In this document: positions 27,708 to 58,241 of the stretch, piece by piece
How positions within the stretch are numbered: position 1 is the first letter of the stretch
Layout of the letters: each line of letters opens with the position of its first letter
DNA from: an uncultured virus (IMG/VR IMGVR_UViG_3300028797_000120)
Lineage: Duplodnaviria; Heunggongvirae; Uroviricota; Caudoviricetes
IMG/VR virus record: IMGVR_UViG_3300028797_000120
Coordinates: 62,001 to 120,241 of that record
Length of the DNA stretch: 58,241 nt
Strand: one strand, 5' to 3'
Notes under the pieces: model-generated
What the model was told of the DNA's origin: nothing
Seen by the model: only the letters and a program-made list of their open reading frames with translations
Database searches by the model: none
Position numbers and translations under genes: made by a program

Positions 27708-28226
27708 TCATTCCGTTTTACCTTTCACTTCCGTTTTCGTCATGACGATAATGCGCTCGGCGTCCGTCGGCTCAGCCCTCAGGCGCGCCTCAACGGCCGC
27801 GAGCGTCTCACGGTCGTCTATGTCTATCTCCTCGTCCCGGTGCTCCATGATGTAGACGTACTGGCGCCACCTGTACTTCTGCAGCCAGGTGATGAACCAG
27901 ATCGATCCCTTATGGGCCGAGTTTTTGGAGAACTTGTGGTGCTTTGGGCACAGAAGGATCCCGTTAAGCGCGTCCCACCGCATGCGCGGGTTCGTGTTCC
28001 TGCTGTCGATGTGGTGCGCGTTCAGGTAGCACGTCTTTCCGTCCGTGTCGACGTCGCCGTACTCCCTCCCGCACACCGCGCACCGGTCGCCGCCGAGAAC
28101 GCGGACCTTCTCGACCCACAGTCGCATGAGCCTGTTTCGGATCGTGGTCTTCTTCTCAAGGCGCTTCCGCTTCGGCTTCTTCGCCCTGGCCTTCCTTGAC
28201 TTTGCCCGTGATGTTCCCATTCTCAT
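27708..28226 (-). CDS. HNH/NinG-like nuclease
   Basis: CAVCG...LNAHHI...RWDALNGILLCPKHH beta-beta-alpha-metal motif. Confidence 0.75.
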   Translation of the reverse strand: MRMGTSRAKSRKARAKKPKRKRLEKKTTIRNRLMRLWVEKVRVLGGDRCAVCGREYGDVDTDGKTCYLNAHHIDSRNTNPRMRWDALNGILLCPKHHKFSKNSAHKGSIWFITWLQKYRWRQYVYIMEHRDEEIDIDDRETLAAVEARLRAEPTDAERIIVMTKTEVKGKTE

Positions 28227-35529: not shown

Positions 35530-35680
35530 CTTCTGTCACATGTCAAATGACACTTCCCGCTTCAACGGATGCTCCACTTCGAGGCCCATGGACCTCGTCG
35601 CTTCAACACCCTCCACAGGCACTTTCCGAGTGACCCTCGGTGAAAATTCTCAGTCCCTCATCGCGAATATTCATGGATGC
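35530..35680 (-). ncRNA. Putative TnpB omegaRNA scaffold (5' boundary uncertain)
   Basis: Overlaps the tnpB 3' end; hairpins GAGGUCC/GGGCCUC and UGUCA/UGACA; UGAAGCGGGAA motif typical of tnpB right ends. Confidence 0.6.
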
Positions 35681-36703
35681 GTTCAGATCTCTGTCAAGCA
35701 CAGACCCGCACTCGGAGCATCTGTAAGTCCTCTCGTCGAGGCCAAGATGTTCCTTCACGTGTCCGCACTTCGAGCAACGCTTGCTCGATGGGAACCATCT
35801 GTCGATCTCCACATAGTTTCGACACTTATACGAGAGAAACATGCGCAGTTCCGCCATGCAACTCTGCTGAGCGCCTCTCCTTATGGATTTCATCGACCTC
35901 TTCATTCCCTCGACGCACAGGCTCTCACAACACACGACGCCGTGGTTTTTGGCAATCGCGGATGTGAACTTGTGCACCGCATCCATCTTCGCGTTTCGGA
36001 TTCTCTGGTGAAGCCTTGCAACTCGTCTTCTGGACTTGTTCCGGTTCTTCGAGCCCTTCTGCCGCCTGCTCAGCTCTCGCTGTGCATGCTTGAGACTCTT
36101 CTCCAGGCGAGGTATGGCCTTAGGCTTGTCGAGCACAGTTCCATCGGACGCGACCGCCCAATGCTTGATGCCGACGTCAATCCCGACAGCAGTCTCTCTA
36201 TCGGTAGGCACAATCTCGCCTTCCAGTTCAACGGTTATCGCAACATACCAACCGTCGGCTTGTTTGGACACTACGAATCTCAGGATGTCGCCCTTGAATC
36301 GCAGTTCTTCGGCCATGCGCACATCTCCAATGTTTGGCAGATGTATGCGCCTGCCGTCCTTGAGCCAGCCCTTGTCGTTCTGGACGTAAAACGAGTCTTT
36401 CCGACCCTTCTTGTGGAAGGTTGGATGTTTGGCCCGTTTCTTGAAGAAAGCAGAGAACGCCGCACCGAGATTCATCAGTGCTTGGGTTTGTGCGCCTCTA
36501 GCTATCTCTTTAGCCCATTCGGGACGCTCGACAGTCCAGAGCTTAGACAGCGTGTACTTGCTGCACTCTTCACCATTCTTGCGCATCTCATCCCATTTGG
36601 CCAAACCCCAGTTGTAGCAATAGCGAACCGTACCGGCCGTCTTGGCCAGCATAATCGCCTGCTCCTTGTTGGGATAGAGCCTAATCTGGTGGGATCTTGT
36701 CAC
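35603..36703 (-). CDS. tnpB: TnpB RNA-guided endonuclease
   Basis: HQIRLYP N-terminal region, RuvC GIDVG / CESL / DRDLNA, Zn finger CSKC..CSEC; catalytic D-E-D intact; probable GTG start at 36703. Confidence 0.95.
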   Translation of the reverse strand: MTRSHQIRLYPNKEQAIMLAKTAGTVRYCYNWGLAKWDEMRKNGEECSKYTLSKLWTVERPEWAKEIARGAQTQALMNLGAAFSAFFKKRAKHPTFHKKGRKDSFYVQNDKGWLKDGRRIHLPNIGDVRMAEELRFKGDILRFVVSKQADGWYVAITVELEGEIVPTDRETAVGIDVGIKHWAVASDGTVLDKPKAIPRLEKSLKHAQRELSRRQKGSKNRNKSRRRVARLHQRIRNAKMDAVHKFTSAIAKNHGVVCCESLCVEGMKRSMKSIRRGAQQSCMAELRMFLSYKCRNYVEIDRWFPSSKRCSKCGHVKEHLGLDERTYRCSECGSVLDRDLNASMNIRDEGLRIFTEGHSESACGGC

Positions 36704-36710
36704 GCCACAT

Positions 36711-36739
36711 ATCATAGGATACTAATCCAATTTTGTCAA
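36711..36739 (-). promoter_or_regulatory. Sigma70-type promoter for tnpB
   Basis: TTGACA (36739-36734), 17-nt spacer, TATGAT (36716-36711). Confidence 0.8.
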
Positions 36740-36776: not shown

Positions 36777-37067
36777 CTTGTGTTCACACGGGTTCGCTAC
36801 TCCCGTGCAGTTTAACCGGCGGTCAACCGGGACATCTTCTGGTTTCCCAGAAGCACAGACTATATCATCATCCCATTCCTGGGATGGAGCACTTCGACTC
36901 GCTTGAGCCTACTCCATTGCGGGATAGTCGTTGAACCTTCTCGGATAGGGGTATCCCTCCACACCGAGCTTGGCTGCTGATTGCCATAGGCACTCCTGCC
37001 ATTAGGTGTTCCAGCAATTCACTTTCTTTTATTCACCGCAGATCGCTCTGCGGCGGGACTCTTACGA
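36777..37067 (-). ncRNA. Group I intron catalytic core (IA-like)
   Basis: P1 GGAU/UC-GUAA-GA-GUCC with U.G at the 5' splice site; P GAAUUGCUGG (37011-37020); Q AAUCAGCAG (36974-36982); R AGGUUCAACGACUA (36925-36938); S GAUAUAGUCU (36857-36866); P8 and P9 hairpins with GNRA loops. Confidence 0.92.
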
Positions 37068-39660: not shown

Positions 39661-42600
39661 CTATTCCCCTTTCATGATCCCAAGGTCGATCCTCGTATCG
39701 AGGAACGGCATGATCGCCTTCTCATGGGTCGCCATGATGATCTGTAGCCCCTTGTTTCTTGCTACCTCGCCAACTTTCTGCAGGAGCTCTCCAAGATGCC
39801 CGATGCTCGCATCGTCAAGATACGCAGTCGGCTCATCAAGGCTCAGCAAACCGAGTTCTCCTCCGAAGCACATGTAGATCGCCAGACGGAATGCGATCGC
39901 AAGCGCAACCTTCTGACCTCCGGACAGCAGGGACGCGTCCGGATTCGGATCAGGCATGGACCGTCCGTCGATGAATCTGCATCGGAACCCGAACCCCTCC
40001 TCCTCCGCCTCAACGACGAAAGGAGCGCAGAATTGGTCGAGGAAACTGTTGACGCAAGCCGTCAGATCCCTCATCACGTTCTGAGACATGATCCTCGGGC
40101 CTTCCTTATAGGAGAACCAGTCCCTCACGCGCTTCAGCACATCAACCTTCTCCCTTACCGCGTCTTCCACCCTCTTCTTCTCCACGAGGTCGTCGATCAT
40201 TTTCCTCGTGCTCTCGATGGATTTCTCCGCAGTGTCGAGACGGCCTTTCTCTGTTGCCATGTCCCGCAGGATTCCGTTGAACGCGTCCAGGTTGGAGCGC
40301 GCTTTCTCGGTCGCCTCGCGGCACTTTTCGGAATAGTCGCCGTGTACGTCCACAGCCTTGATCCCGATGTCCGCCACGCGCCTCTCCGCCGCCTCCATGG
40401 CCTGTCTGACCATGTCGACCTGGGCCGAGTAACGCGCGACGTTGTCCCTGGCCGTCTTGGCCGCGTCCTTCGTCCTGACCGCATCATTCAGCTTGCGCCT
40501 GTTGTCGGCCAGCCTTGACTCGATCTTCGGGAGATCGTCGGGGACATTGCCCTTGTATGAGACCTCGAACGAGACCATGTCGATTACGACACCCTCGACG
40601 TTCTTGTCCTTGGCGTTCTTGAGCGCCGCTTTTGCGGCTTCCATCCTCGTCCTCGCGCGGTCTAACTTTCGCGCGCAGGCGCTTTCTTCCGCCTCGCGCT
40701 TGTCGAGGGCCATTCTGGCATCCCTCGCCTTTTCGGTCACTTCCCTGCGCTTCGCCTCCATCGCGTCAAGCTTCTCTTTAACGTGTCTGGAGATGTCTTC
40801 CTGCGTGGCCGGAGCGCCGCAAAGCGGACACGTCCCGTCACTTGACGCCTCGCGCATCATGTTGCGCAGACTGCGGGCCTCGGCCTCTGCGGCAGCCTGC
40901 TCGTTGTCGAGCCTCTTGACCTCCGCACGGTCGTCCTCAACTTTCGTCGTGTACCGCGCGAGATCGGACTCAGCCTCCCTTATGGCGGCGTCGCCCTCAT
41001 TCTTTGCGCTGAGCGCCGCATCGGACAGATCCTTCAGCCTTGTGAGGAAACGGACGACATCCCCGTCCTCGTCGACGAGCTTCCGGAGCCGCTCCTCTTC
41101 CTCTTCCGAGAACGATCCGACTTCGTCAAGCTCCTTGAGCGCGCGCCCGTGCGCTTCCTGCGCGCTGTTTAGCCTGCGCGTCACGGAGACGAGCTCCTCG
41201 ACCGCGGCCTGCGCGCCGGCCAGACGGTCGACTTCCTTCTCAAGTTCCTCCTTGGTCGGGAGTTTCCGGATCGCCGCGTCATACTTACCGAGCGTTTCCC
41301 GGCAAGCTCTCGCGACGTCCTCGTGCGTGTCGAGCTGCTCCCTTGCGCGTGCGATGGCGTCGTCGAAGCCCTGAGGCTTGTCATACGCAGCTATCTCACT
41401 ACGGAGCGACTCGTAGATCTTAGTGGCGTTCCCGATACCGATGAGTCGCTGGAACGCAACCTCCCTGTTCTTAGGGTCATCGAACAGGATCGCGTCGATT
41501 CCCTTCTGAGGTACAAACACGATCTGCCTTATGAGCTCCTTGTCGAGCCCGGCCTTCTCGCGCAGGGCATCCTCTACCTTCCTCGCCTGCTTGATCGTCT
41601 CTCCGTCCACCTTCAGCGTCACGTCACCGTTGGTCTTCCTGACAATCACGAACTCAGTGTTGTTCGACCCTGCCGTGAATATCAGCTTGACCGAACCTTC
41701 CTTCTCACCCCACGTAGTGAGGTTAGCTTTCGTGAACCCAGGCTGCTCACCTGTGAGCGCGAACTGAATGGCTCCGATCAGGTTCGACTTGCCGCAGTTG
41801 TGTGTCAGATAACAATGTTCGCGTCCGATACAATATGTGTATGGTGCTTCTCGCATTCGGATGGTATAGTAAGCGGCTGCTTCCAATACCTTAATCCGTA
41901 CGCAATTTCCGAGATGCTCTTCAGGCTCAGCTTTCTCGCCGCCGGAACAGCGTTCCTCACCTCCTCCGCAAGGATCCTTTTCAGCGACACTCCCGCCACA
42001 TGGTACGGATACTTCTTCCGATTCTCCGACCACACCCTCCGAACCTCCGCAATCTCCTCCTGCGTCAGCACCTGCGGATTCGGTATTGTCACCCTGCCAT
42101 GGGTTACCCCATACCACGCATTGTACTTCACGCTGCACCACTCCAGGTTCTCCGCCCTGTTGTTTGACGGATTGCAGTCGATATGGTTCACCACTGGCAA
42201 CCCAAGCGGGTTCTCCAGCCACGCTTCCGCCACGATCCTGTGCACCTTCACGGTATGCCCATCGAGCATCGTCCTTAAGTACCCATTCGGATCCCGCGCT
42301 GGCTTCATCACGGCAACTATTCTGCCGCCATACTGTCGCGTCGTCAAAAGGCGCCCCATATTGCTCACAAAGTAATTTGAGCTGTGCCCTCTGACCTGCT
42401 TCCAGCGCTCCCCAGACAAGCTGATAGAGCGGATAGAATCCATCTCCCGCGAAGAAGGGGTGGTCGTATGTGCAACACGTTTTCTCTCCATCGATTTCAA
42501 CCTCCAGCATCGGTTTCTGTTTATGATCGGGACTGGTCATAACGACACCGGAGACCGTGCTGGACGTCAACCGACCGCTCTCATCGTCAAAAGCAAGCAG

Positions 42601-42777
42601 CACGTCTCCACTCTTAACCTCCTCTACGGGCCTGACCGTCCCGTCATACATCCTTACGGGCGTTCCCTTCGCGAGACACCCGTTCGGCCCTAAAACGGCA
42701 ATCAGGTTGCCGCTGAAGTCGACGTCAAGCTTCTTATGCTGGCGAAAGTTCGTCAGCTCAATACGCTTCAAATGCAT
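39661..42777 (-). CDS. sbcC: SbcC/Rad50-like SMC ATPase, intein-containing
   Basis: Start MHLKRIELTNF after AAGGAG; Walker A GPNG/CGKS split by an intein; coiled coil with CPLC hook; LSGGQ signature; LDEPT Walker B. Confidence 0.93.
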   Translation of the reverse strand: MHLKRIELTNFRQHKKLDVDFSGNLIAVLGPNGCLAKGTPVRMYDGTVRPVEEVKSGDVLLAFDDESGRLTSSTVSGVVMTSPDHKQKPMLEVEIDGEKTCCTYDHPFFAGDGFYPLYQLVWGALEAGQRAQLKLLCEQYGAPFDDATVWRQNSCRDEASAGSEWVLKDDARWAYREGAQDRGGSVAGEPAWVASGEPYRLQSVKQQGGEPGVVQREVQCVVWGNPWQGDNTESAGADAGGDCGGSEGVVGESEEVSVPCGGSVAEKDPCGGGEERCSGGEKAEPEEHLGNCVRIKVLEAAAYYTIRMREAPYTYCIGREHCYLTHNCGKSNLIGAIQFALTGEQPGFTKANLTTWGEKEGSVKLIFTAGSNNTEFVIVRKTNGDVTLKVDGETIKQARKVEDALREKAGLDKELIRQIVFVPQKGIDAILFDDPKNREVAFQRLIGIGNATKIYESLRSEIAAYDKPQGFDDAIARAREQLDTHEDVARACRETLGKYDAAIRKLPTKEELEKEVDRLAGAQAAVEELVSVTRRLNSAQEAHGRALKELDEVGSFSEEEEERLRKLVDEDGDVVRFLTRLKDLSDAALSAKNEGDAAIREAESDLARYTTKVEDDRAEVKRLDNEQAAAEAEARSLRNMMREASSDGTCPLCGAPATQEDISRHVKEKLDAMEAKRREVTEKARDARMALDKREAEESACARKLDRARTRMEAAKAALKNAKDKNVEGVVIDMVSFEVSYKGNVPDDLPKIESRLADNRRKLNDAVRTKDAAKTARDNVARYSAQVDMVRQAMEAAERRVADIGIKAVDVHGDYSEKCREATEKARSNLDAFNGILRDMATEKGRLDTAEKSIESTRKMIDDLVEKKRVEDAVREKVDVLKRVRDWFSYKEGPRIMSQNVMRDLTACVNSFLDQFCAPFVVEAEEEGFGFRCRFIDGRSMPDPNPDASLLSGGQKVALAIAFRLAIYMCFGGELGLLSLDEPTAYLDDASIGHLGELLQKVGEVARNKGLQIIMATHEKAIMPFLDTRIDLGIMKGE
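41797..42678 (-). mobile_element. Intein (294 aa) in the SbcC Walker A motif
   Basis: Block A CLAKGTPVRMYDG, block B TYDHPFF, terminal THN followed by +1 Cys; excision restores GPNGCGKS. Confidence 0.95.
41805..42491 (-). CDS. NUMOD4-HNH homing endonuclease in the +1 frame inside the intein
   Basis: ERWKQV...YFVSNMGRL (NUMOD4) and VHRIVAEAW...VNHIDCNPSNNRAENLEW (HNH); ATG 42491 with GGAGG 9 nt upstream. Confidence 0.9.
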   Translation of the reverse strand: MERKRVAHTTTPSSREMDSIRSISLSGERWKQVRGHSSNYFVSNMGRLLTTRQYGGRIVAVMKPARDPNGYLRTMLDGHTVKVHRIVAEAWLENPLGLPVVNHIDCNPSNNRAENLEWCSVKYNAWYGVTHGRVTIPNPQVLTQEEIAEVRRVWSENRKKYPYHVAGVSLKRILAEEVRNAVPAARKLSLKSISEIAYGLRYWKQPLTIPSECEKHHTHIVSDANIVI

Positions 42778-42820
42778 TCTGTTCTCCTTCCTGGTCAATA
42801 CCAGACCAAGCACCATAACT

Positions 42821-47048: not shown

Positions 47049-47837
47049 CTAATCAAGGAACTTCGCGTGATCCTTGACGAAGAGATTGCTCCAACGTTTG
47101 TACTCCTCGTCCATGTAACTCTTGATCACGCCTTCATGCTCGCGCCTAGGGAGCCCGGTGGACAACCGAAGGATCTCGTCGAACTTTTCGTTCCCGAGGC
47201 CCATATAGTCGTTCGCGAACGAGCAGGCCTCCTTCAGCGCGCGCGCGCCAATTTCTCCGGATACCCAGCTGCGCTCAAGCGTTTTGCGCGAGAGCGAGTG
47301 GATCAGCCAGATCTGGACGACACGGACAAAGCACGCGCCATCTTTCTCGTCCAGAATCTGGATCTCCTGACCGGTTGCCGGATTATTGAATCTGGACAGC
47401 GGAGCTACGACGAACATGTCGTCATCGTGCTTCTCGCCGTTCTCCCCAGCGCTCATCCACTTCCCGAGCACGACCACACGGCGCGGCTCGCCGATCCCGA
47501 ACTCAGGCGACATCATCCGGATCTGCCCCTTTTTGATGTCAGGGTCGAAGTCGTCGACGAGCCGCAGACATTCGGCACGCGCCTTATCGTCGTCCGAAGT
47601 GGAGAAGTCTCGGTCCATATCAGGATCCTCCACGCTCTCAAGGCGCTTCCGGATCTGGTATTCGGCGACGAACATATCCGAATGTTCTCGCCTTGCCTCT
47701 TCTTCGCTCTTTGACGGACGCCGCAGTATCTCGTCGAAGCTATCCCACAGTTCTTTTGTGGACTTACCTTTCGTGTCCACTCCACGGTCGAAGCAGAATA
47801 CCTCCCTAAGAAGGGAGTCAAAAACGGTTTTACTCAT
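47049..47837 (-). CDS. Hypothetical protein
   Basis: 262-aa ORF. Confidence 0.7.
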   Translation of the reverse strand: MSKTVFDSLLREVFCFDRGVDTKGKSTKELWDSFDEILRRPSKSEEEARREHSDMFVAEYQIRKRLESVEDPDMDRDFSTSDDDKARAECLRLVDDFDPDIKKGQIRMMSPEFGIGEPRRVVVLGKWMSAGENGEKHDDDMFVVAPLSRFNNPATGQEIQILDEKDGACFVRVVQIWLIHSLSRKTLERSWVSGEIGARALKEACSFANDYMGLGNEKFDEILRLSTGLPRREHEGVIKSYMDEEYKRWSNLFVKDHAKFLD

Positions 47838-48411: not shown

Positions 48412-48503
48412 ATCTCAAATAGCGAAAAACAGGGAGGGTGTTTCACCTCCTGTTTTTTCCTTGCCGCGCGTGCGCGGCTTTTGGCGCAGGTTCGCGCCTA
48501 TCC

Positions 48504-48650
48504 TTACGGATTATTAGGAGCCTGAGGCTCCTTCGGACGGTCCTGAGGCTTAGCAGGTTTCGGTTTCGCGCAGTTCTGCGCGATAACCTCCGCCTGTGCC
48601 TCAGGAACGCCCTGCTTAAGCAGGGCGTAAAAGATTTCCTCTTCGGACAT
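48504..48650 (-). CDS. 48-aa small ORF, not in the ORF track
   Basis: MSEEEIFYALLKQGVPEAQAEVIAQNCAKPKPAKPQDRPKEPQAPNNP; terminator-like hairpin at 48425-48458. Confidence 0.5.
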   Translation of the reverse strand: MSEEEIFYALLKQGVPEAQAEVIAQNCAKPKPAKPQDRPKEPQAPNNP

Positions 48651-48828
48651 CTTTTTTTTTCCCAGGTTTCCCTTCCCCTCCATCCGAACTTACGACAGGC
48701 ACGCCTGCCGCAGTACTCGGACTTTAGTCCGGTATTACCCTGCGCCCCCCATTGCTGGGCCGCGGTCTCCCGCGGATCTTCGGCTGGGCGCCTGCCAAAA
48801 ACCCCGACCCACCCGGGCGGGGAAAACG

Positions 48829-48864
48829 AAAAACCCGCATGCCGCTGGAATGACGGCATGCGGG
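48829..48864 (-). terminator. Intrinsic terminator
   Basis: 11-bp stem CCCGCATGCCG/CGGCATGCGGG followed by TTTTT; a second hairpin plus T5 at 48797-48822. Confidence 0.85.
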
Positions 48865-49226
48865 CTCCTACTCGGGATTCCAACCCCTTTCGGAACAGGG
48901 GCCCATTTGAGGGACCCCTCCCCATCGGCATCCTGGTGCTGCCTTTGGGGGAAAATCTCTTTCGTCCCGCCCCCAGGCCACCGAAGCGGCCCGGGGACGG
49001 GACATGCCGCCGGTTTTGACCGGCTTGGGGAAGTTGGATTTCGGAGCGCGGCACTTCCCGATGAACACGCTCCTAGCCGGTGGAACACCCCGCGGCTCCC
49101 GGCAGCCGCGGCCCCTCTATGATGAGGGGGACGCCATGGAGGCCCGCTGAAACTCCTTGAAAGTCGCGGGCCCCTTTTATCATTCCTCGCCCTGGCTTGA
49201 CGAGGAAGGGTGAGGAACTTATTTTT
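48829..49226 (-). ncRNA. Candidate large structured ncRNA
   Basis: Runs from a TATAAT promoter to an intrinsic terminator; many helices, an 18-bp C(UUCG)G stem with G.U pairs, and a pseudoknot. Confidence 0.65.
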
Positions 49227-49231
49227 CACCT

Positions 49232-49243
49232 TATTATAACCGG
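49232..49243 (-). promoter_or_regulatory. -10 element CCGGTTATAATA
   Basis: TATAAT in an AT-rich patch; identical 12-mer at 49642-49653. Confidence 0.7.
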
Positions 49244-49433
49244 GAATTCGTATATTTTAACTCCCGGAAACAAAACGGCGGGGACCATCTCTGATCCCCG
49301 CCGCACGCACCTCCCGACCCTAATCAAATAGGATCAGGAGGATGTAGATGAGGACTGGCATGTCCCCTCCTTTCCCCCTTGATGGGTTTTTCCAACACGG
49401 CCCCGTGGGGGTGGGGCGAGAATCGCCCCCGAA

Positions 49434-49510
49434 TGGTGCGCGTGCCGGGACTTGAACCCGGAACCTGCGGATTAGGAATCCGCCGCTCTGTCCAGTTGAG
49501 CTACACGCGC
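49434..49510 (-). tRNA. tRNA-Arg(CCT)
   Basis: Cloverleaf with acceptor GCGCGTG/CACGCGC, anticodon arm GCGGA-TTCCTAA-TCCGC, GGTTCAAGTCC T arm and encoded CCA. Confidence 0.96.
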
Positions 49511-49641
49511 AAAATCCTTCCGCCGTGACGTCGCGGATTATGTGAGGCTTGGTGCCTCAACGGTGTGCCGGGGACTCGGGCATGGGGTAGCACACTTTCC
49601 ATGCCATTCGAATAAGGGAAATGTTTCACTTTCCCTCACAG

Positions 49642-49653
49642 TATTATAACCGG
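49642..49653 (-). promoter_or_regulatory. -10 element upstream of the tRNA
   Basis: CCGGTTATAATA preceded by A-tracts. Confidence 0.7.
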
Positions 49654-49737
49654 AAAATGCCCTTTTTTTAGCCATTTTACGGCTTTTTTTGAGGAAAAAC
49701 GCCTTTTTTTAGCACCTGTTTTCGCGCTGGCGTGACG

Positions 49738-51975: not shown

Positions 51976-53781
51976 CTAAAACGCCTCCTCATCCTCACCA
52001 TCGCCGTACGCCCTTCTCGGCAAATCTCCTCCGGACGACAGTTCGGACAGCCTAGCTATCGCCCTTGACCCCCTGAGCTTCTCCATGGCCTCCAGCTCGA
52101 TCTTCCTGATGTGCTCCCTGGTGACGTTGAACACCCGCCCGATCTCCTCCAGCGTCCTGGCCGATCCGTCGGAGAGACCGAACCTGAGGTCGATGACGAT
52201 CCGCTCACGCTCTGTGAGGCAGGACATCGCCTCCCTGATGCCGTCCATCACCATGTGCCTGCCAGCCTCCTCTGCTGGGTCCTCGGCCGTCTCGTCACCC
52301 ATCAGGTCGCCGAGCGTCGTGTCGCCGCTCTCGTCCACGCTAGAGTCCAGCGAGACCGAGTGCTGGCGCATCCGCCTGAGGGACTCGATCCTGTCCGGCG
52401 TCACGCCCATCTCGTCGGCTATCTCACCGACGCCCGGCTCGCGCCCAAGAGCGTTCGTGAGGGCCTTCTCGGCAGCCCCCATCTTGTTTAGAAGGTCCAC
52501 CATGTGGGATGGCAGGCGGACCGTCCTGGAGTTGTTTGTGAGCGACCTGGAGATAGCCTGGCGTATCCACCATGTGGCGAATGTAGAGAATTTGTGCCCC
52601 CTGGACAGGTCGAACTTCCTCACCGCCGTCATCAGGCCCATGCTCCCGTCCTGAAGCAGGTCGGACATCTCGATTCCGCGGTTGGCGTATTTCTTCGCGA
52701 CATGGACGACTAGGCGAAGGTTGGCCTCCGTGATGCGCGTCCTTGCGGACTGCACCACACCGAGTATGCTGATGACCTCGCCGAAACTGTCCATGAACTC
52801 GCCGGGCGGCATGCCGAACATCGGCTCCATGTCCATCGCCCTCGCCTCCGCGTCCGCGTCCCCTGCGTCAGCCCTCCTCCTGAGGTCCATGTACACCGAG
52901 TAGACGCTCTCTTTCGCGCTGTCGCAGAACGACTCGACCACTGACTGCCTGAAGTGGAGGGCCTTCAGGCGCCTCCTCATCTCGTCCCTGTAGGCCTGCA
53001 GGAGTCCGTCGGCCTTAACGGACTCCCCAGGGCTCCTGACGGAGTACCTAAGCATGCTGGCACCGGCCACCATGTCGGCCGCCTCCGCTATGCACCGCTT
53101 GAATCCTGGTATGGCCTGCTTGTAGGCGGAGCACCTCATGCCTGACGACTCGGACACGACGCTGTCGAAGTGAGTCTCACCGGACAGGAGGCGGTCCAGC
53201 TCCCTGACGTACATGTCCGGGGCGAACAGGTACCTGCTGAAAAGCTCACCGACCCTGTCGAGCGACGCTTCGATGACCCTGAACCATGAGACCTCCTCCT
53301 CCCTGCTCAGCAGACGCGTGTCCGAGGCCTGGTGCAGATACATCCCGACGGTGTTTGACGCCCCAGGCGAGTCTCCATCCACCTCATACCCCTCATCCCC
53401 ATCATCACCATCGTCCTCGTCATCCTCTTCATCCTCGTCATCACCGTCCCCTATGTCCTCTATGTCTTCCCCGTCTTCTCCGTCTTCGCAGTCTTCCCCG
53501 TCTTCGCAGTTAGCTCCGAAATCACCCTTACCCCGTAACGCGTATCCGCCATCTTCGTCATTCTCATCGCACACGCCACCCGTCTCATCCACTCCTAATT
53601 CGATTCCCCATCGGACGCCTGCCACGCCGTCATCTGGACATACGGACATGGAGAATCCGGCGTCCATAAGGTCCGCTCCAGGCCCGCCAGCCGTTCCTGG
53701 CCATACGTTGGTTCTTGGATTTCCGGCGATTCCTGAGCTTCTGGCGCTTCTACGGGCTCTCTGTGTTTTCTGGGCTACCAT
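51976..53781 (-). CDS. RpoD-like (group 1/2) sigma70 factor, phage-encoded
   Basis: Region 1.2 MYLHQ..LLSREEE, NCR, region 2 ANLRLVV..AKKY...FSTFATWWIRQAI, region 3, region 4 RTLEEIG; acidic N-terminal region; start 53781 after GGAGG. Confidence 0.93.
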   Translation of the reverse strand: MVAQKTQRARRSARSSGIAGNPRTNVWPGTAGGPGADLMDAGFSMSVCPDDGVAGVRWGIELGVDETGGVCDENDEDGGYALRGKGDFGANCEDGEDCEDGEDGEDIEDIGDGDDEDEEDDEDDGDDGDEGYEVDGDSPGASNTVGMYLHQASDTRLLSREEEVSWFRVIEASLDRVGELFSRYLFAPDMYVRELDRLLSGETHFDSVVSESSGMRCSAYKQAIPGFKRCIAEAADMVAGASMLRYSVRSPGESVKADGLLQAYRDEMRRRLKALHFRQSVVESFCDSAKESVYSVYMDLRRRADAGDADAEARAMDMEPMFGMPPGEFMDSFGEVISILGVVQSARTRITEANLRLVVHVAKKYANRGIEMSDLLQDGSMGLMTAVRKFDLSRGHKFSTFATWWIRQAISRSLTNNSRTVRLPSHMVDLLNKMGAAEKALTNALGREPGVGEIADEMGVTPDRIESLRRMRQHSVSLDSSVDESGDTTLGDLMGDETAEDPAEEAGRHMVMDGIREAMSCLTERERIVIDLRFGLSDGSARTLEEIGRVFNVTREHIRKIELEAMEKLRGSRAIARLSELSSGGDLPRRAYGDGEDEEAF

Positions 53782-53810
53782 GGCAGTGTCCTCCGTCAAT
53801 ATATTGTGAA

Positions 53811-53839
53811 GAATGCCACAACATCGCTCCCATGTCAAG
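53811..53839 (-). promoter_or_regulatory. Sigma70-type promoter for the sigma gene
   Basis: TTGACA, 17-nt spacer ending TGG, then CATTCT. Confidence 0.55.
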
Positions 53840-56076: not shown

Positions 56077-56406
56077 CTATGTCAAACAATATCCCTTGCC
56101 GACCATTTTTACGGTCGCCTCGCACGGATACGCCATCCTCGGGTTGTCGATCTGCGAGATGATCGTTTTCGATGAGGTGAACACGACCCTGAGCCGCCTT
56201 TCCGGGTCATCCGCGAAGTAGAACTGGATCATCTTGTACGGACCCCTCACGCCGTCGACATTGGCGTGGTTCGATATCCTGGCCTCCGTCCTCGTGATGA
56301 CGATGCGCCTGTTCAGGATCTCCGGCATCTTCGCCTTCTCCCCCTCCATGATGCCCGGGATGTCCAACGCCGAGAATTTCCTTATGACGCCGTCTGAGCT
56401 CACCAT
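56077..56406 (-). CDS. Small ORF overlapping the DGR RT, candidate accessory protein
   Basis: KFSALDI..EGEK...ILNRRIVI...VVFTSS..IISQI...YPCEATV; overlaps the RT 3' end by 200 nt. Confidence 0.7.
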   Translation of the reverse strand: MVSSDGVIRKFSALDIPGIMEGEKAKMPEILNRRIVITRTEARISNHANVDGVRGPYKMIQFYFADDPERRLRVVFTSSKTIISQIDNPRMAYPCEATVKMVGKGYCLT

Positions 56407-57424
56407 AGAGATCGTCGATCCCTTCGCTTTTTCTGAAGTTGTATGTCTGCGCCCACCTGCACACTCCGACGGCGCTTGAAGCCGACCCCATCATGCTGAG
56501 GATCCTGTTCGGGCCAAGTTGGATCCCGTCAGCGTCGGAACGCTCGACGACCCTACGTATCCCGCGCATCCTACGGGCGATCCGCCTTGCCGTCGACCTC
56601 CTGAGCAGGAGCTTCCGCGGGAACGACCGGTATCCGCAGAAGTCGAGCCCGTCCCTCGTCCTGGCGATTTCGCGCTTCGAGAACGAGAGCCGCATCTCCC
56701 CCTCCACGAAATCCGCGATGCCGTCGGAGACGGCGCGCATCTCGTCCCTGCACCCGAAGGCGATGAAGTCGTCGCAGTACCGGACGTACTTTTTGACGCG
56801 CATGCGCTCCTTGACGTGGTGGTCCAGGAGGTCCATGTAGATGTTCCCGAACCACTGGCTCGTCAGATTTCCGATCGGGCACCCGACCCCCGTGTCCGTC
56901 TCGAACGAGTCGATCCAGTCGAACAGGATCCTCAGCGCGTCAGCGTCCTTCAGCCCTCGCTGGATCGCCTCCTTCAGGACGTTGTGGTCGATGCTGTGGT
57001 AGAACCCGCGGATGTCGCACTTCAGGTAGTGCGAGGAGTTCCGTACGAACACGGAAGCCCTATGCACCGCCCTGTGCGTTCCCTTCCCGACGCGGCAGGC
57101 GTAGGAGTCCGAGATGAATCGCGGCTCCCAGACGAGCGGTCCGAGGACGTCCACGACCGCGTGCTGCACGATCCTGTCCGGATAGAACGGGAGGATGTGT
57201 ATCTCGCGGCGCTTCGGCTCTGTGATGACCCTCATCCTGTAGGGGGCTGGCCTGTACGCCCTGTCGAGGAGCATCTCCCTGATCCCGGCGATTGTCCCGT
57301 CCGGGTCGTCCATCCGCGCGGAGACGTCCTCGGTCCGTTTCGCCCCTCTGGCGGCGTTGAGGAGCGCCCTCCGGATGTTCTCCGGATCGCAGATCCTCTG
57401 ATAGACATTCCCCACGCGCTTCAC
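56207..57424 (-). CDS. DGR reverse transcriptase
   Basis: GTG start giving MKRVGNVY; EPKRREI, DRIVQHA, SYACRVGKGTH, CDIRGFY, DGR-type GCPIGNLTSQ, and YCDD. Confidence 0.95.
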   Translation of the reverse strand: MKRVGNVYQRICDPENIRRALLNAARGAKRTEDVSARMDDPDGTIAGIREMLLDRAYRPAPYRMRVITEPKRREIHILPFYPDRIVQHAVVDVLGPLVWEPRFISDSYACRVGKGTHRAVHRASVFVRNSSHYLKCDIRGFYHSIDHNVLKEAIQRGLKDADALRILFDWIDSFETDTGVGCPIGNLTSQWFGNIYMDLLDHHVKERMRVKKYVRYCDDFIAFGCRDEMRAVSDGIADFVEGEMRLSFSKREIARTRDGLDFCGYRSFPRKLLLRRSTARRIARRMRGIRRVVERSDADGIQLGPNRILSMMGSASSAVGVCRWAQTYNFRKSEGIDDLYGELRRRHKEILGVGHPGHHGGGEGEDAGDPEQAHRHHEDGGQDIEPRQCRRREGSVQDDPVLLRG

Positions 57425-57610
57425 TTGTCCAACATCCAATCTCACGGAGTCATGGCGTGAGCATAAAAACGCGGGCGGGCGTTCGGCCAGACGCCTACCA
57501 GACCGCCCGCGTCTCCGTCGTGTGTTTCGCCGCCGTGGAAACCGCCATGGCGACGGGGCTACGCGCTCAGCCGGAGTCAACTCGAAGGCGTTGCCTTAAC
57601 CAACCTCGGA

Positions 57611-57729
57611 TCGAACCGCGACCGCCGTTGTTCACGTTCACCGTGGAACGGGAATTGTTCGCGTTACGGTAGAGCGGACCGATCGCGACAAGCGAGGTCG
57701 TTGTCCAATTACCGCCAGCGTTAACGGCC
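57611..57729 (-). repeat. DGR template repeat (TR)
   Basis: 119 bp matching 57975-58093 except at 8 positions, all A in the TR sense strand; AAC/AAT-rich. Confidence 0.97.
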
Positions 57730-57771
57730 GTCACCAGCGCGGAGCCATCCGGCGTTTCCGCCGGCAAAGAC

Positions 57772-57780
57772 AGTATACCA
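57772..57780 (-). promoter_or_regulatory. Extended -10 promoter for the TR-RT RNA
   Basis: TGGTATACT about 43 nt upstream of the TR, followed by hairpin CCGGCG-GAAA-CGCCGG. Confidence 0.65.
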
Positions 57781-57936
57781 AATTTTCCTGACGTGTTGCC
57801 GAAACCCGTGGGAAGCCGGAAAATTTCGCCGCCCGGCCGGGCGGCCGGGCGGTTTCTTTCTCTTTTTCTTCTTCGTTTTGCGTCTCGCGTCTCACGTTCC
57901 GCTTTCAACGCGCCCGTTTCCGTCCCGCACGTACAT

Positions 57937-58241
57937 TCACGCGTCCGGGGGCTGTACACTGTGGAGACTCCGGCTCGAACCGCGACCGCCGCTGCTCACG
58001 CTCACCGTGGAACGGGAATAGTTCGCGTTACGGTAGAGCGGACCGATCGCGACAAGCGAGGCCGTAGGCCAATTACCGCCAGCGTAAACGGCCTTGTACT
58101 GCCCCATGTAGTAGTGGCTGCCGAAGGAGTTCATCGCGCCGTCGAAGCCCTTTGTGGACGTACTTTCTGTCGTGTTGTCCCATTTCGCGCCGCTGTAGGT
58201 GTACGGGGCCGCCTGCCTGAGCCACTGGTTCTGGAGACCGC
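57937..58241 (-). CDS. DGR target protein, C-terminal C-type-lectin-like domain (5' end outside the window)
   Basis: Frame open to the window edge: GLQNQWL...AGGNW...YRNAN.SRS...GGRG, typical of CLec-fold VR domains. Confidence 0.88.
   Translation of the reverse strand, partial: GLQNQWLRQAAPYTYSGAKWDNTTESTSTKGFDGAMNSFGSHYYMGQYKAVYAGGNWPTASLVAIGPLYRNANYSRSTVSVSSGGRGSSRSLHSVQPPDA
57975..58093 (-). repeat. DGR variable repeat (VR)
   Basis: At the 3' end of the target gene; changes relative to TR are N>Y, T>P, T>A, N>Y and N>S x3. Confidence 0.97.

Follow-up and report, generated by a model that had tools for sequence, protein, structure and literature searches.

In the 58,241-nt stretch of uncultured phage DNA analyzed here (the window, which corresponds to 62001-120241 in G000, a virus record of 120 kb), the minus strand of positions 48829-49227 holds what is, judged from its sequence, a real and well-bounded orphan candidate RNA gene that lies outside Rfam and gives no basis for a class. 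We tentatively read it as a stand-alone phage gene for a noncoding RNA of ~400 nt that may act in trans by serving a host protein as decoy or scaffold; transcription, the tertiary fold and the decoy or scaffold role are what we infer. A 181-kb record (G029) represents the same phage, and its candidate region is identical to that of G000. The terminase of this phage has more than 100 uncultured relatives at 50-77% identity, while the best terminase match in INPHARED is at 28.5%. ENA and Logan assemblies show the clade to be large, with about 80 terminase clusters at 60% identity or more. Clusters of look-alikes of one neighbouring protein come mostly from Verrucomicrobiota, Lentisphaerota and Kiritimatiellota, which is a weak hint that the host belongs to this group.

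On the minus strand, a 330-aa gene is followed by a promoter, the tRNA-Arg(CCT) gene (49434-49510, with its own TATAAT at 49648-49643), a terminator, a second promoter and the candidate RNA, after which come two terminators, a folded stretch of 110 nt, a 48-codon ORF (48504-48650), another terminator and ORFs of 163, 262, 283 (MYG1 domain) and 216 aa. The tRNA-Arg gene is the sole tRNA of the 120-kb record, with no array, and lies 200 nt upstream of the candidate. Several neighbouring stretches are structured in their own right: the tRNA-Arg leader (49605-49560, minus strand) contains its own H-type pseudoknot of 7 bp plus 6-7 bp, the stretch past the tandem terminators (48797-48690, minus strand) has a multi-branch fold with GAGA, GCAA and UAAA loops (z -3.2), and the 48-codon ORF is strongly palindromic (z -7.3). 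Outside the window, at about 28100-28180 of G000 (minus strand, L005-L006), relaxed ARAGORN found a degenerate tRNA-like sequence with a T arm and a CCA end.

The candidate is probably transcribed, with ends as given here, according to the signals on either side of it. As stated in the initial annotation, the minus strand carries a TATAAT box (49238-49233) at one end and an 11-bp terminator at the other. The -10 element lies in the context CCGGTTATAAT (49233-49243) and was found by a consensus scan with 10/12 matches; TTAAAA at 49260-49255 is a possible -35 element. Two copies of GGTTATAAT are present in the 120-kb record, one before the tRNA unit and one before the candidate RNA. Many genes in G000, in G001 (a relative with a terminase at 69% identity) and in G002 have related -10 boxes in front of them, and the tRNA-Arg promoter of G001 has nearly the same sequence as this promoter class. 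Beyond the candidate's own box, TATAAT is absent from the minus strand between 49233 and 43998. The 5′ end would lie 6-7 nt past the -10 box and the 3′ end in the U-tract of terminator 1 (48823-48869, minus strand), whose stem (48864-48854/48844-48834) has an 11-bp Watson-Crick core, or 15-17 bp with G-U pairs, and is followed by UUUUU and a second U run. Terminator 2 (48797-48822, minus strand) stands in tandem with it; the consensus scan listed the candidate promoter and terminator 2 (48817-48803), while terminator 1 is absent from that list. The same scan reported a terminator with 13 pairs and a U-tract at 49275-49304 (minus strand) that closes the upstream tRNA unit, and this strong terminator places the candidate RNA outside the tRNA transcript.

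A hairpin follows all 4 other GGTTATAAT promoters found in G000, G001 and G002. At the candidate, the promoter-proximal hairpin H0 (49209-49230, minus strand) has two A-C mismatches in G000. In sequencing runs X1 and X2, A>G changes at 49225 and 49224 replace both mismatches by G-C pairs; these changes are one-sided, stem from low-depth contigs (depth 4-5) in two runs of one study, and do not constitute covariation.

The 400-nt minus strand folds with a z of -6.6 and the plus strand with -5.2. Removing the terminator brings the minus-strand value to -6.0, and taking out the 18-bp hairpin described below as well brings it to -4.1; 60 other 400-nt windows of the genome gave a best z of about -4.3 and a median of -0.6 in what is a rough control, being mostly coding, with 6 shuffles each and a fixed SD. 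Nearby noncoding DNA folds too (tRNA leader, z -4.2; tRNA trailer, z -4.3), and in windows of 120 nt the candidate ranges from -0.2 to -4.1, with two flanking windows reaching -8.4 and -7.3. The region had been described as almost entirely helices; the strong fold was borne out, but not the extent, as pairs at p>0.9 cover 38% of the candidate bases. Among these pairs, 6/76 are G-U on the minus strand and 1/72 on the plus strand, and this bias, together with the UUCG loop and the orientation of the signals, identifies the minus strand as the probable RNA strand. The ORFs inside the candidate are either short or without a usable ribosome site, and we agree with their earlier dismissal as noise: there is no credible gene among them.

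All helices named in the initial annotation were found on the minus strand where it had placed them, including the 18-bp hairpin (49003-48964), which has three G-U pairs, is capped by C(UUCG)G and is predicted at p 1.00. In 5′ to 3′ order after H0, H1 (49183-49207; UUCCUCG/CGAGGAA, 49207-49201/49189-49183) has two competing registers, H2 (49139-49174; 9 bp plus 5 bp, with GGCCCGC/GCGGGCC at 49172-49166/49147-49141) is predicted at p 0.92, and H3 (49112-49129; CCCCUC/GAGGGG, 49129-49124/49117-49112) at p 0.96. H4 (49090-49111; CCGCGGCU/AGCCGCGG, 49111-49104/49097-49090) comprises 8 Watson-Crick pairs and appears in some predicted folds, but is absent from the centroid. Toward the 3′ end, H7 (48920-48950), whose stem is interrupted by a 2x2 purine internal loop and whose 9-nt loop ends in AGGA, has p 0.98, and the outer 5 bp of H8 (48897-48919) have p 0.99. 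An H-type pseudoknot occupies 49028-49073, with stem 1 at 49073-49066/49050-49043 (p 0.94) and stem 2 at 49059-49053/49034-49028. A predicted 7-bp helix, ACCGGCU/AGCCGGU (49081-49075/49025-49019, spanning 49019-49081), would close it; a hairpin at 49024-49009 is an alternative to this helix and, in a pseudoknot-free model, outweighs it (0.72 vs. 0.28). The sequences proposed for the knot and its closing helix are thus in place, but their distinctiveness is borderline, since comparable pseudoknots occur in 16/300 shuffles and 10/296 genome windows; we regard the knot as a plausible real structure that is borderline against shuffles.

The confident elements (p 0.92-1.00), namely H2, H3, pseudoknot stem 1, the 18-bp hairpin, H7, H8 and the terminator, are all local, and the long-range helices of the centroid comprise one of 6 bp (p 0.63) and two of 4 bp (p about 0.56). 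Two crossing helices that could form a large pseudoknot (49211-49199/48926-48914, 13 bp; 49175-49167/48905-48897, 9 bp) were rejected as being at chance level: shuffles reach a 13-bp long-range helix in 54/300 cases and both crossing helices in 22/300. The predicted pairing suggests a chain of hairpins with one knot, and not a demonstrably ornate multi-domain fold.

A search of the whole window against Rfam 15 at the gathering threshold returned the tRNA and one group I intron only, with the candidate unmatched. When cmscan was run on the candidate at E up to 10, the matches were weak and unrelated (best E 0.2, far below thresholds), in agreement with the expectation that no Rfam family would match; ROOL (RF03087) and GOLLD (RF02032) were absent from this output, and none of the riboswitch, T-box, Y RNA, Csr/Rsm or ribozyme families matched within the candidate. 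Searches with the ROOL and GOLLD families over 24 records gave no match anywhere, with the controls silent too, and are hence uninformative. The absence of RNase P, tmRNA and intron signatures, noted earlier by eye, was upheld by covariance models that match controls or relatives and not the candidate. The RNase P model (RF00010) rings in 11/14 controls, and its sole match in G000 is a 20.8-bit piece elsewhere. The tmRNA model (RF00023) matches nothing in G000 or G029 and scores 83-114 bits in the relatives G003, G004 and G006; ARAGORN at default found no tmRNA in the candidate region. A permuted tmRNA overlapping the region, reported by relaxed ARAGORN, was discarded: it has no identified tag and spans both terminators. 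No group I or II intron lies at the candidate, which has no flanking exons, and the same scan detects the intron at 36836-37059. That intron match (63.9 bits) is directly upstream of an IS605 TnpB ORF (35603-36715, minus strand) and is IStron-like; G001 has both genes that flank this site, with no TnpB and no Rfam match in the gap between them.

For a Y RNA of the YrlA type, no TROVE domain was present in G029 or 4 relatives (2/14 controls ring), and neither a CsrA nor a Ro60 gene was found in 5 records. For an RNA associated with a reverse transcriptase (DGR, retron or DRT), the reverse transcriptase is 7 kb off and comes with template and variable repeats of its own. It belongs to a diversity-generating retroelement at 56207-58093 (minus strand), with a template repeat at 57607-57729 and a variable repeat at 57971-58093, 8/9 of whose differences fall at template adenines. 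No published name for such an RNA was found in titles and the openings of abstracts, and six motif strings were absent from the part of the PMC10690425 supplements outside files 1, 2 and 4, which may hold RNA models.

The only holders of the candidate that we found are the same phage (G029) and one ~93%-identical relative, seen in runs X1 and X2. This relative retains the promoter end and the 3′ half; coverage is missing at 48741-49218 in X1 and at 49011-49194 in X2, and these gaps carry no evidence in either direction. Over 48707-49010, run X2 shows 22 changed bases out of 304, plus 2 gaps, and the flanking genes have 40/779 and 17/187 changes against the same relative, so that no extra conservation is visible in the 3′ half. 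At 48648, a loose end of run X1 looks, by eye, like a diverged start of the 48-codon ORF with a similar protein sequence. Right of the tRNA, the relative has 223 other letters in place of 66 nt, which indicates fast turnover there.

Diverged homologues were sought widely. The phage's own genome holds no diverged copy (the longest G000 self-match is 15/16 nt, E 2.3), INPHARED phages yielded 3 matches of 30 nt at E 0.5 and no diverged homologue, and PLSDB plasmids likewise yielded no homologue and 3 matches of 33 nt, on the terminator. In blastn searches of 29 and 24 related virus records, the only full-length match was G029. Covariance models R1 and R2, which have low power because the input to each was a single sequence entered twice, found no diverged homologue over 47 records, nor over 75 pattern hits or 29 pattern hits plus 5 metagenome loci. 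Viral pattern scans (2, 2, 16, 75 and 29 loci) found the RNA only in the same phage; a tRNA-Arg pattern run against metagenomes matched 7 loci, of which two are the G001 and G029 contigs and the other 5 lack the RNA; a genome pattern scan gave 63 loci at 21-51% identity with no close relative; and a sequencing-run search had no RNA holder among the matches listed. Five of the 75 loci (L281, L296, L314, L316 and L327) have a look-alike stem and a matching CUUCCC, which we rejected as convergence on account of the short intergenic gap and the lack of other similarity to the candidate. The element at these loci, near 501-545 in high-GC phages, is a long hairpin whose loop could pair with the downstream CUUCCC, and it has no Rfam match. 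Likenesses of the candidate to an element of G001 (60/500 shuffles as good), to its own downstream stretch 48800-48420 (374/500) and to the three tmRNAs of the clade (117, 189 and 120 of 200 shuffles score equally) were all set aside as chance.

As no diverged homologue was found, covariation lends no support to the candidate, and of the suggestion of an undescribed phage RNA class, the lack of an Rfam match stands but the class does not. The narrow distribution may be partly an artefact, since close relatives are mostly readable as proteins only and the RNA models are single-sequence.

In G001, the 330-aa gene, the promoter, the tRNA and a 146-aa gene are kept; between these genes there are other RNA-like elements, with neither the candidate nor the 48-, 163-, 262-, 283- and 216-aa ORFs. 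One such element, on contig L096 at 1096-742 (minus strand), is ~355 nt long, with tRNA-like ends around an insert of ~270 nt; the ends comprise a 7-bp acceptor stem starting with C-G, class II-like arms (by eye), a T arm and ACCA. It has no match to Rfam or to the tmRNA model, and L167 carries a variant without the 5′ part. An unusual tRNA-like gene lies directly after tRNA-Arg on L096 (1480-1400, minus strand) and was missed by both Rfam gathering and default ARAGORN. One-piece tmRNAs are present at G003:130368-130758, G004:51263-51641 and G006:41078-41446, with none in G000, G029 or G001. Given these replacement elements and the tmRNAs of three relatives, RNA genes are gained and lost within this clade, to judge by the records compared. 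G001 also lacks a Hint-domain insertion located near the N-terminus of an SbcC/SMC-like ATPase at 39661-42816 (minus strand).

Our tentative reading of a trans-acting phage RNA would proceed as follows. A sigma-70-type polymerase, using the host's factor or the phage-encoded RpoD-like factor (51976-53838, minus strand; long acidic N-terminal stretch; present in G001 too), would start the RNA from the promoter class common to the tRNA-Arg unit, and the tandem intrinsic terminators would end it. Cotranscriptional folding would give a single H-type pseudoknot with some eight local hairpins around it, and the hairpins at both ends would slow decay. The RNA, which would be abundant and resist nucleases, may then bind a host protein (putatively an RNA-binding regulator or an anti-phage RNase) during infection and act as its decoy or scaffold, and would be an accessory restricted to one narrow phage lineage. 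Action in trans is suggested by the candidate's own promoter and terminators, the lack of a credible reading frame and the lack of a long antisense match in the genome.

Several other readings have to be weighed against this one. The region could be a decaying or neutral relic, a former RNA gene, an insert of the tRNA region or the end of a mobile element that is now free of selection, and the equal divergence of the flanking genes, the absence of the candidate from G001 and all other related records searched, the two H0 mismatches that the relative is without and the fast turnover right of the tRNA fit such a history. Yet the promoter is intact, there are perfect stems spanning 7-18 bp, and both the C(UUCG)G loop and the tandem terminators are in place, a combination that would hardly persist free of selection; nor is there similarity to the clade tmRNAs or the G001 element, and on balance a relic seems unlikely. 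Rather more improbable is a regulated leader or attenuator, in which a two-fold switch would control read-through into the 48-codon ORF and beyond. A 10-bp antiterminator-like helix is possible between 49011-49002 and the 5′ strand of the terminator (48861-48852), two helices are mutually exclusive (49014-49009 being hairpin-bound or free depending on the pseudoknot closing helix), and the minus strand offers no further TATAAT between 49233 and 43998; yet the antiterminator has a probability of about 0 both at full length and when the RNA is cut at 48850, terminator 2 is untouched by it, and no riboswitch or T-box family matches. That the palindromes act as DNA, as an origin or a protein-binding hairpin cluster, would account for the folding of the plus strand (z -5.2) and the dense palindromes across 48500-49700, but the G-U pairs and the UUCG loop make better sense in an RNA of one strand, the promoter and the U-tract terminators are oriented, and tandem iterons are absent, which makes this quite unlikely. 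We consider it highly improbable that the candidate presents GGA loops as a sponge for CsrA/RsmA: there are 5 copies of AGGA where 1.8 would be expected (p 0.015, a post hoc observation), one of them in the H7 loop, but GGA itself is unenriched (10 vs. 9.2 expected) with most copies in stems, and no Csr/Rsm family matches inside the candidate. We give equally little credence to an undescribed self-cleaving or splicing ribozyme, to which the compact pseudoknot within its closing helix near a tRNA gene could point; no ribozyme or intron family matched at E up to 10, the separate promoter and terminator make processing needless, and, in a comparison by eye with their consensus, hammerhead and HDV-like cores are absent.

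A more specific proposal concerns the 262-aa ORF (47049-47837, minus strand), in which a structure model (pLDDT 86) has a MazF/CptN-like fold in residues 99-262 (vs. MazF, Foldseek E 1.5e-4 and Z 9.1, rmsd 2.7, 99 aligned; vs. CptN, Z 8.4, rmsd 3.8, 121 aligned). The candidate could be a type III-like RNA antitoxin or decoy, with the RNase binding or cutting out the pseudoknot and being held inactive, a reading prompted by the order promoter, pseudoknot RNA, terminator and MazF/CptN-fold gene and by the joint absence of the RNA and the 262-aa gene from G001. Type III antitoxin RNAs (ToxI, CptI, AntiQ) resemble the candidate in having a promoter, an H-type pseudoknot, a terminator and a downstream MazF-fold gene, but these systems are defined by repeat arrays directly upstream of the terminator and toxin gene (PMC5086642). 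The candidate has no tandem repeats at score 30 and no internal repeat family of that kind, offers one pseudoknot in 400 nt, and is 1 kb from the gene, with two ORFs (48650-48504 and 48411-47920) and a terminator (48450-48433) in between. The 262-aa family has no Pfam match; most of its 100 relatives are ~330 aa long and match over the first ~200 residues, and 55/59 have Tyr at the position of Arg120. The only further phage homologue that we found, in G019, is preceded by AT-rich DNA with no such RNA; a search of 5 cellular genomes with the A7 profile, run without a positive control, came back empty. The shared fold shows no function for the 262-aa protein, and we find the antitoxin reading improbable. 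Just as speculative is a bolder version, in which the candidate would be the first member of a new structure-conserved class of large RNAs in the present phage clade (genomes of 160-210 kb) that neutralises a MazF/CptN-fold RNase by a single pseudoknot, the target being the phage's own protein (47837-47049) or the host family of that gene. If linked to the MazF/CptN-fold protein, the candidate would extend RNA antitoxins beyond repeat arrays.

If it works at all, the candidate would by analogy do so in the manner of other stand-alone structured phage RNAs. It is comparable to the tmRNAs of G003, G004 and G006 in size (369-391 nt), pseudoknot content and phage group, but it has no tRNA-like domain, CCA end or tag frame and ends in a terminator. 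Independently transcribed bacterial small RNAs of the CsrB/RsmY type act as protein decoys, and the candidate shares with them its own promoter and terminator and a chain of local hairpins; in contrast to them it has no repeated loop motif, its GGA is unenriched, and it is much longer with more G+C-rich stems. ROOL and GOLLD, described in PMC12286853, are the precedent for large structured noncoding RNAs near phage tRNA genes. The earlier comparison with them holds for the proximity to a tRNA gene, but not for a match to their models in cmscan, and the candidate consists mostly of local hairpins with one pseudoknot and has no family or covariation behind it; it is also shorter, at 400 nt, than the 659 nt of ROOL env-120 and the often more than 800 nt of GOLLD. 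As the function of ROOL and GOLLD remains unsolved, an unrelated, clean-ended RNA of a size suited to probing and cryo-EM would be a usable test object.
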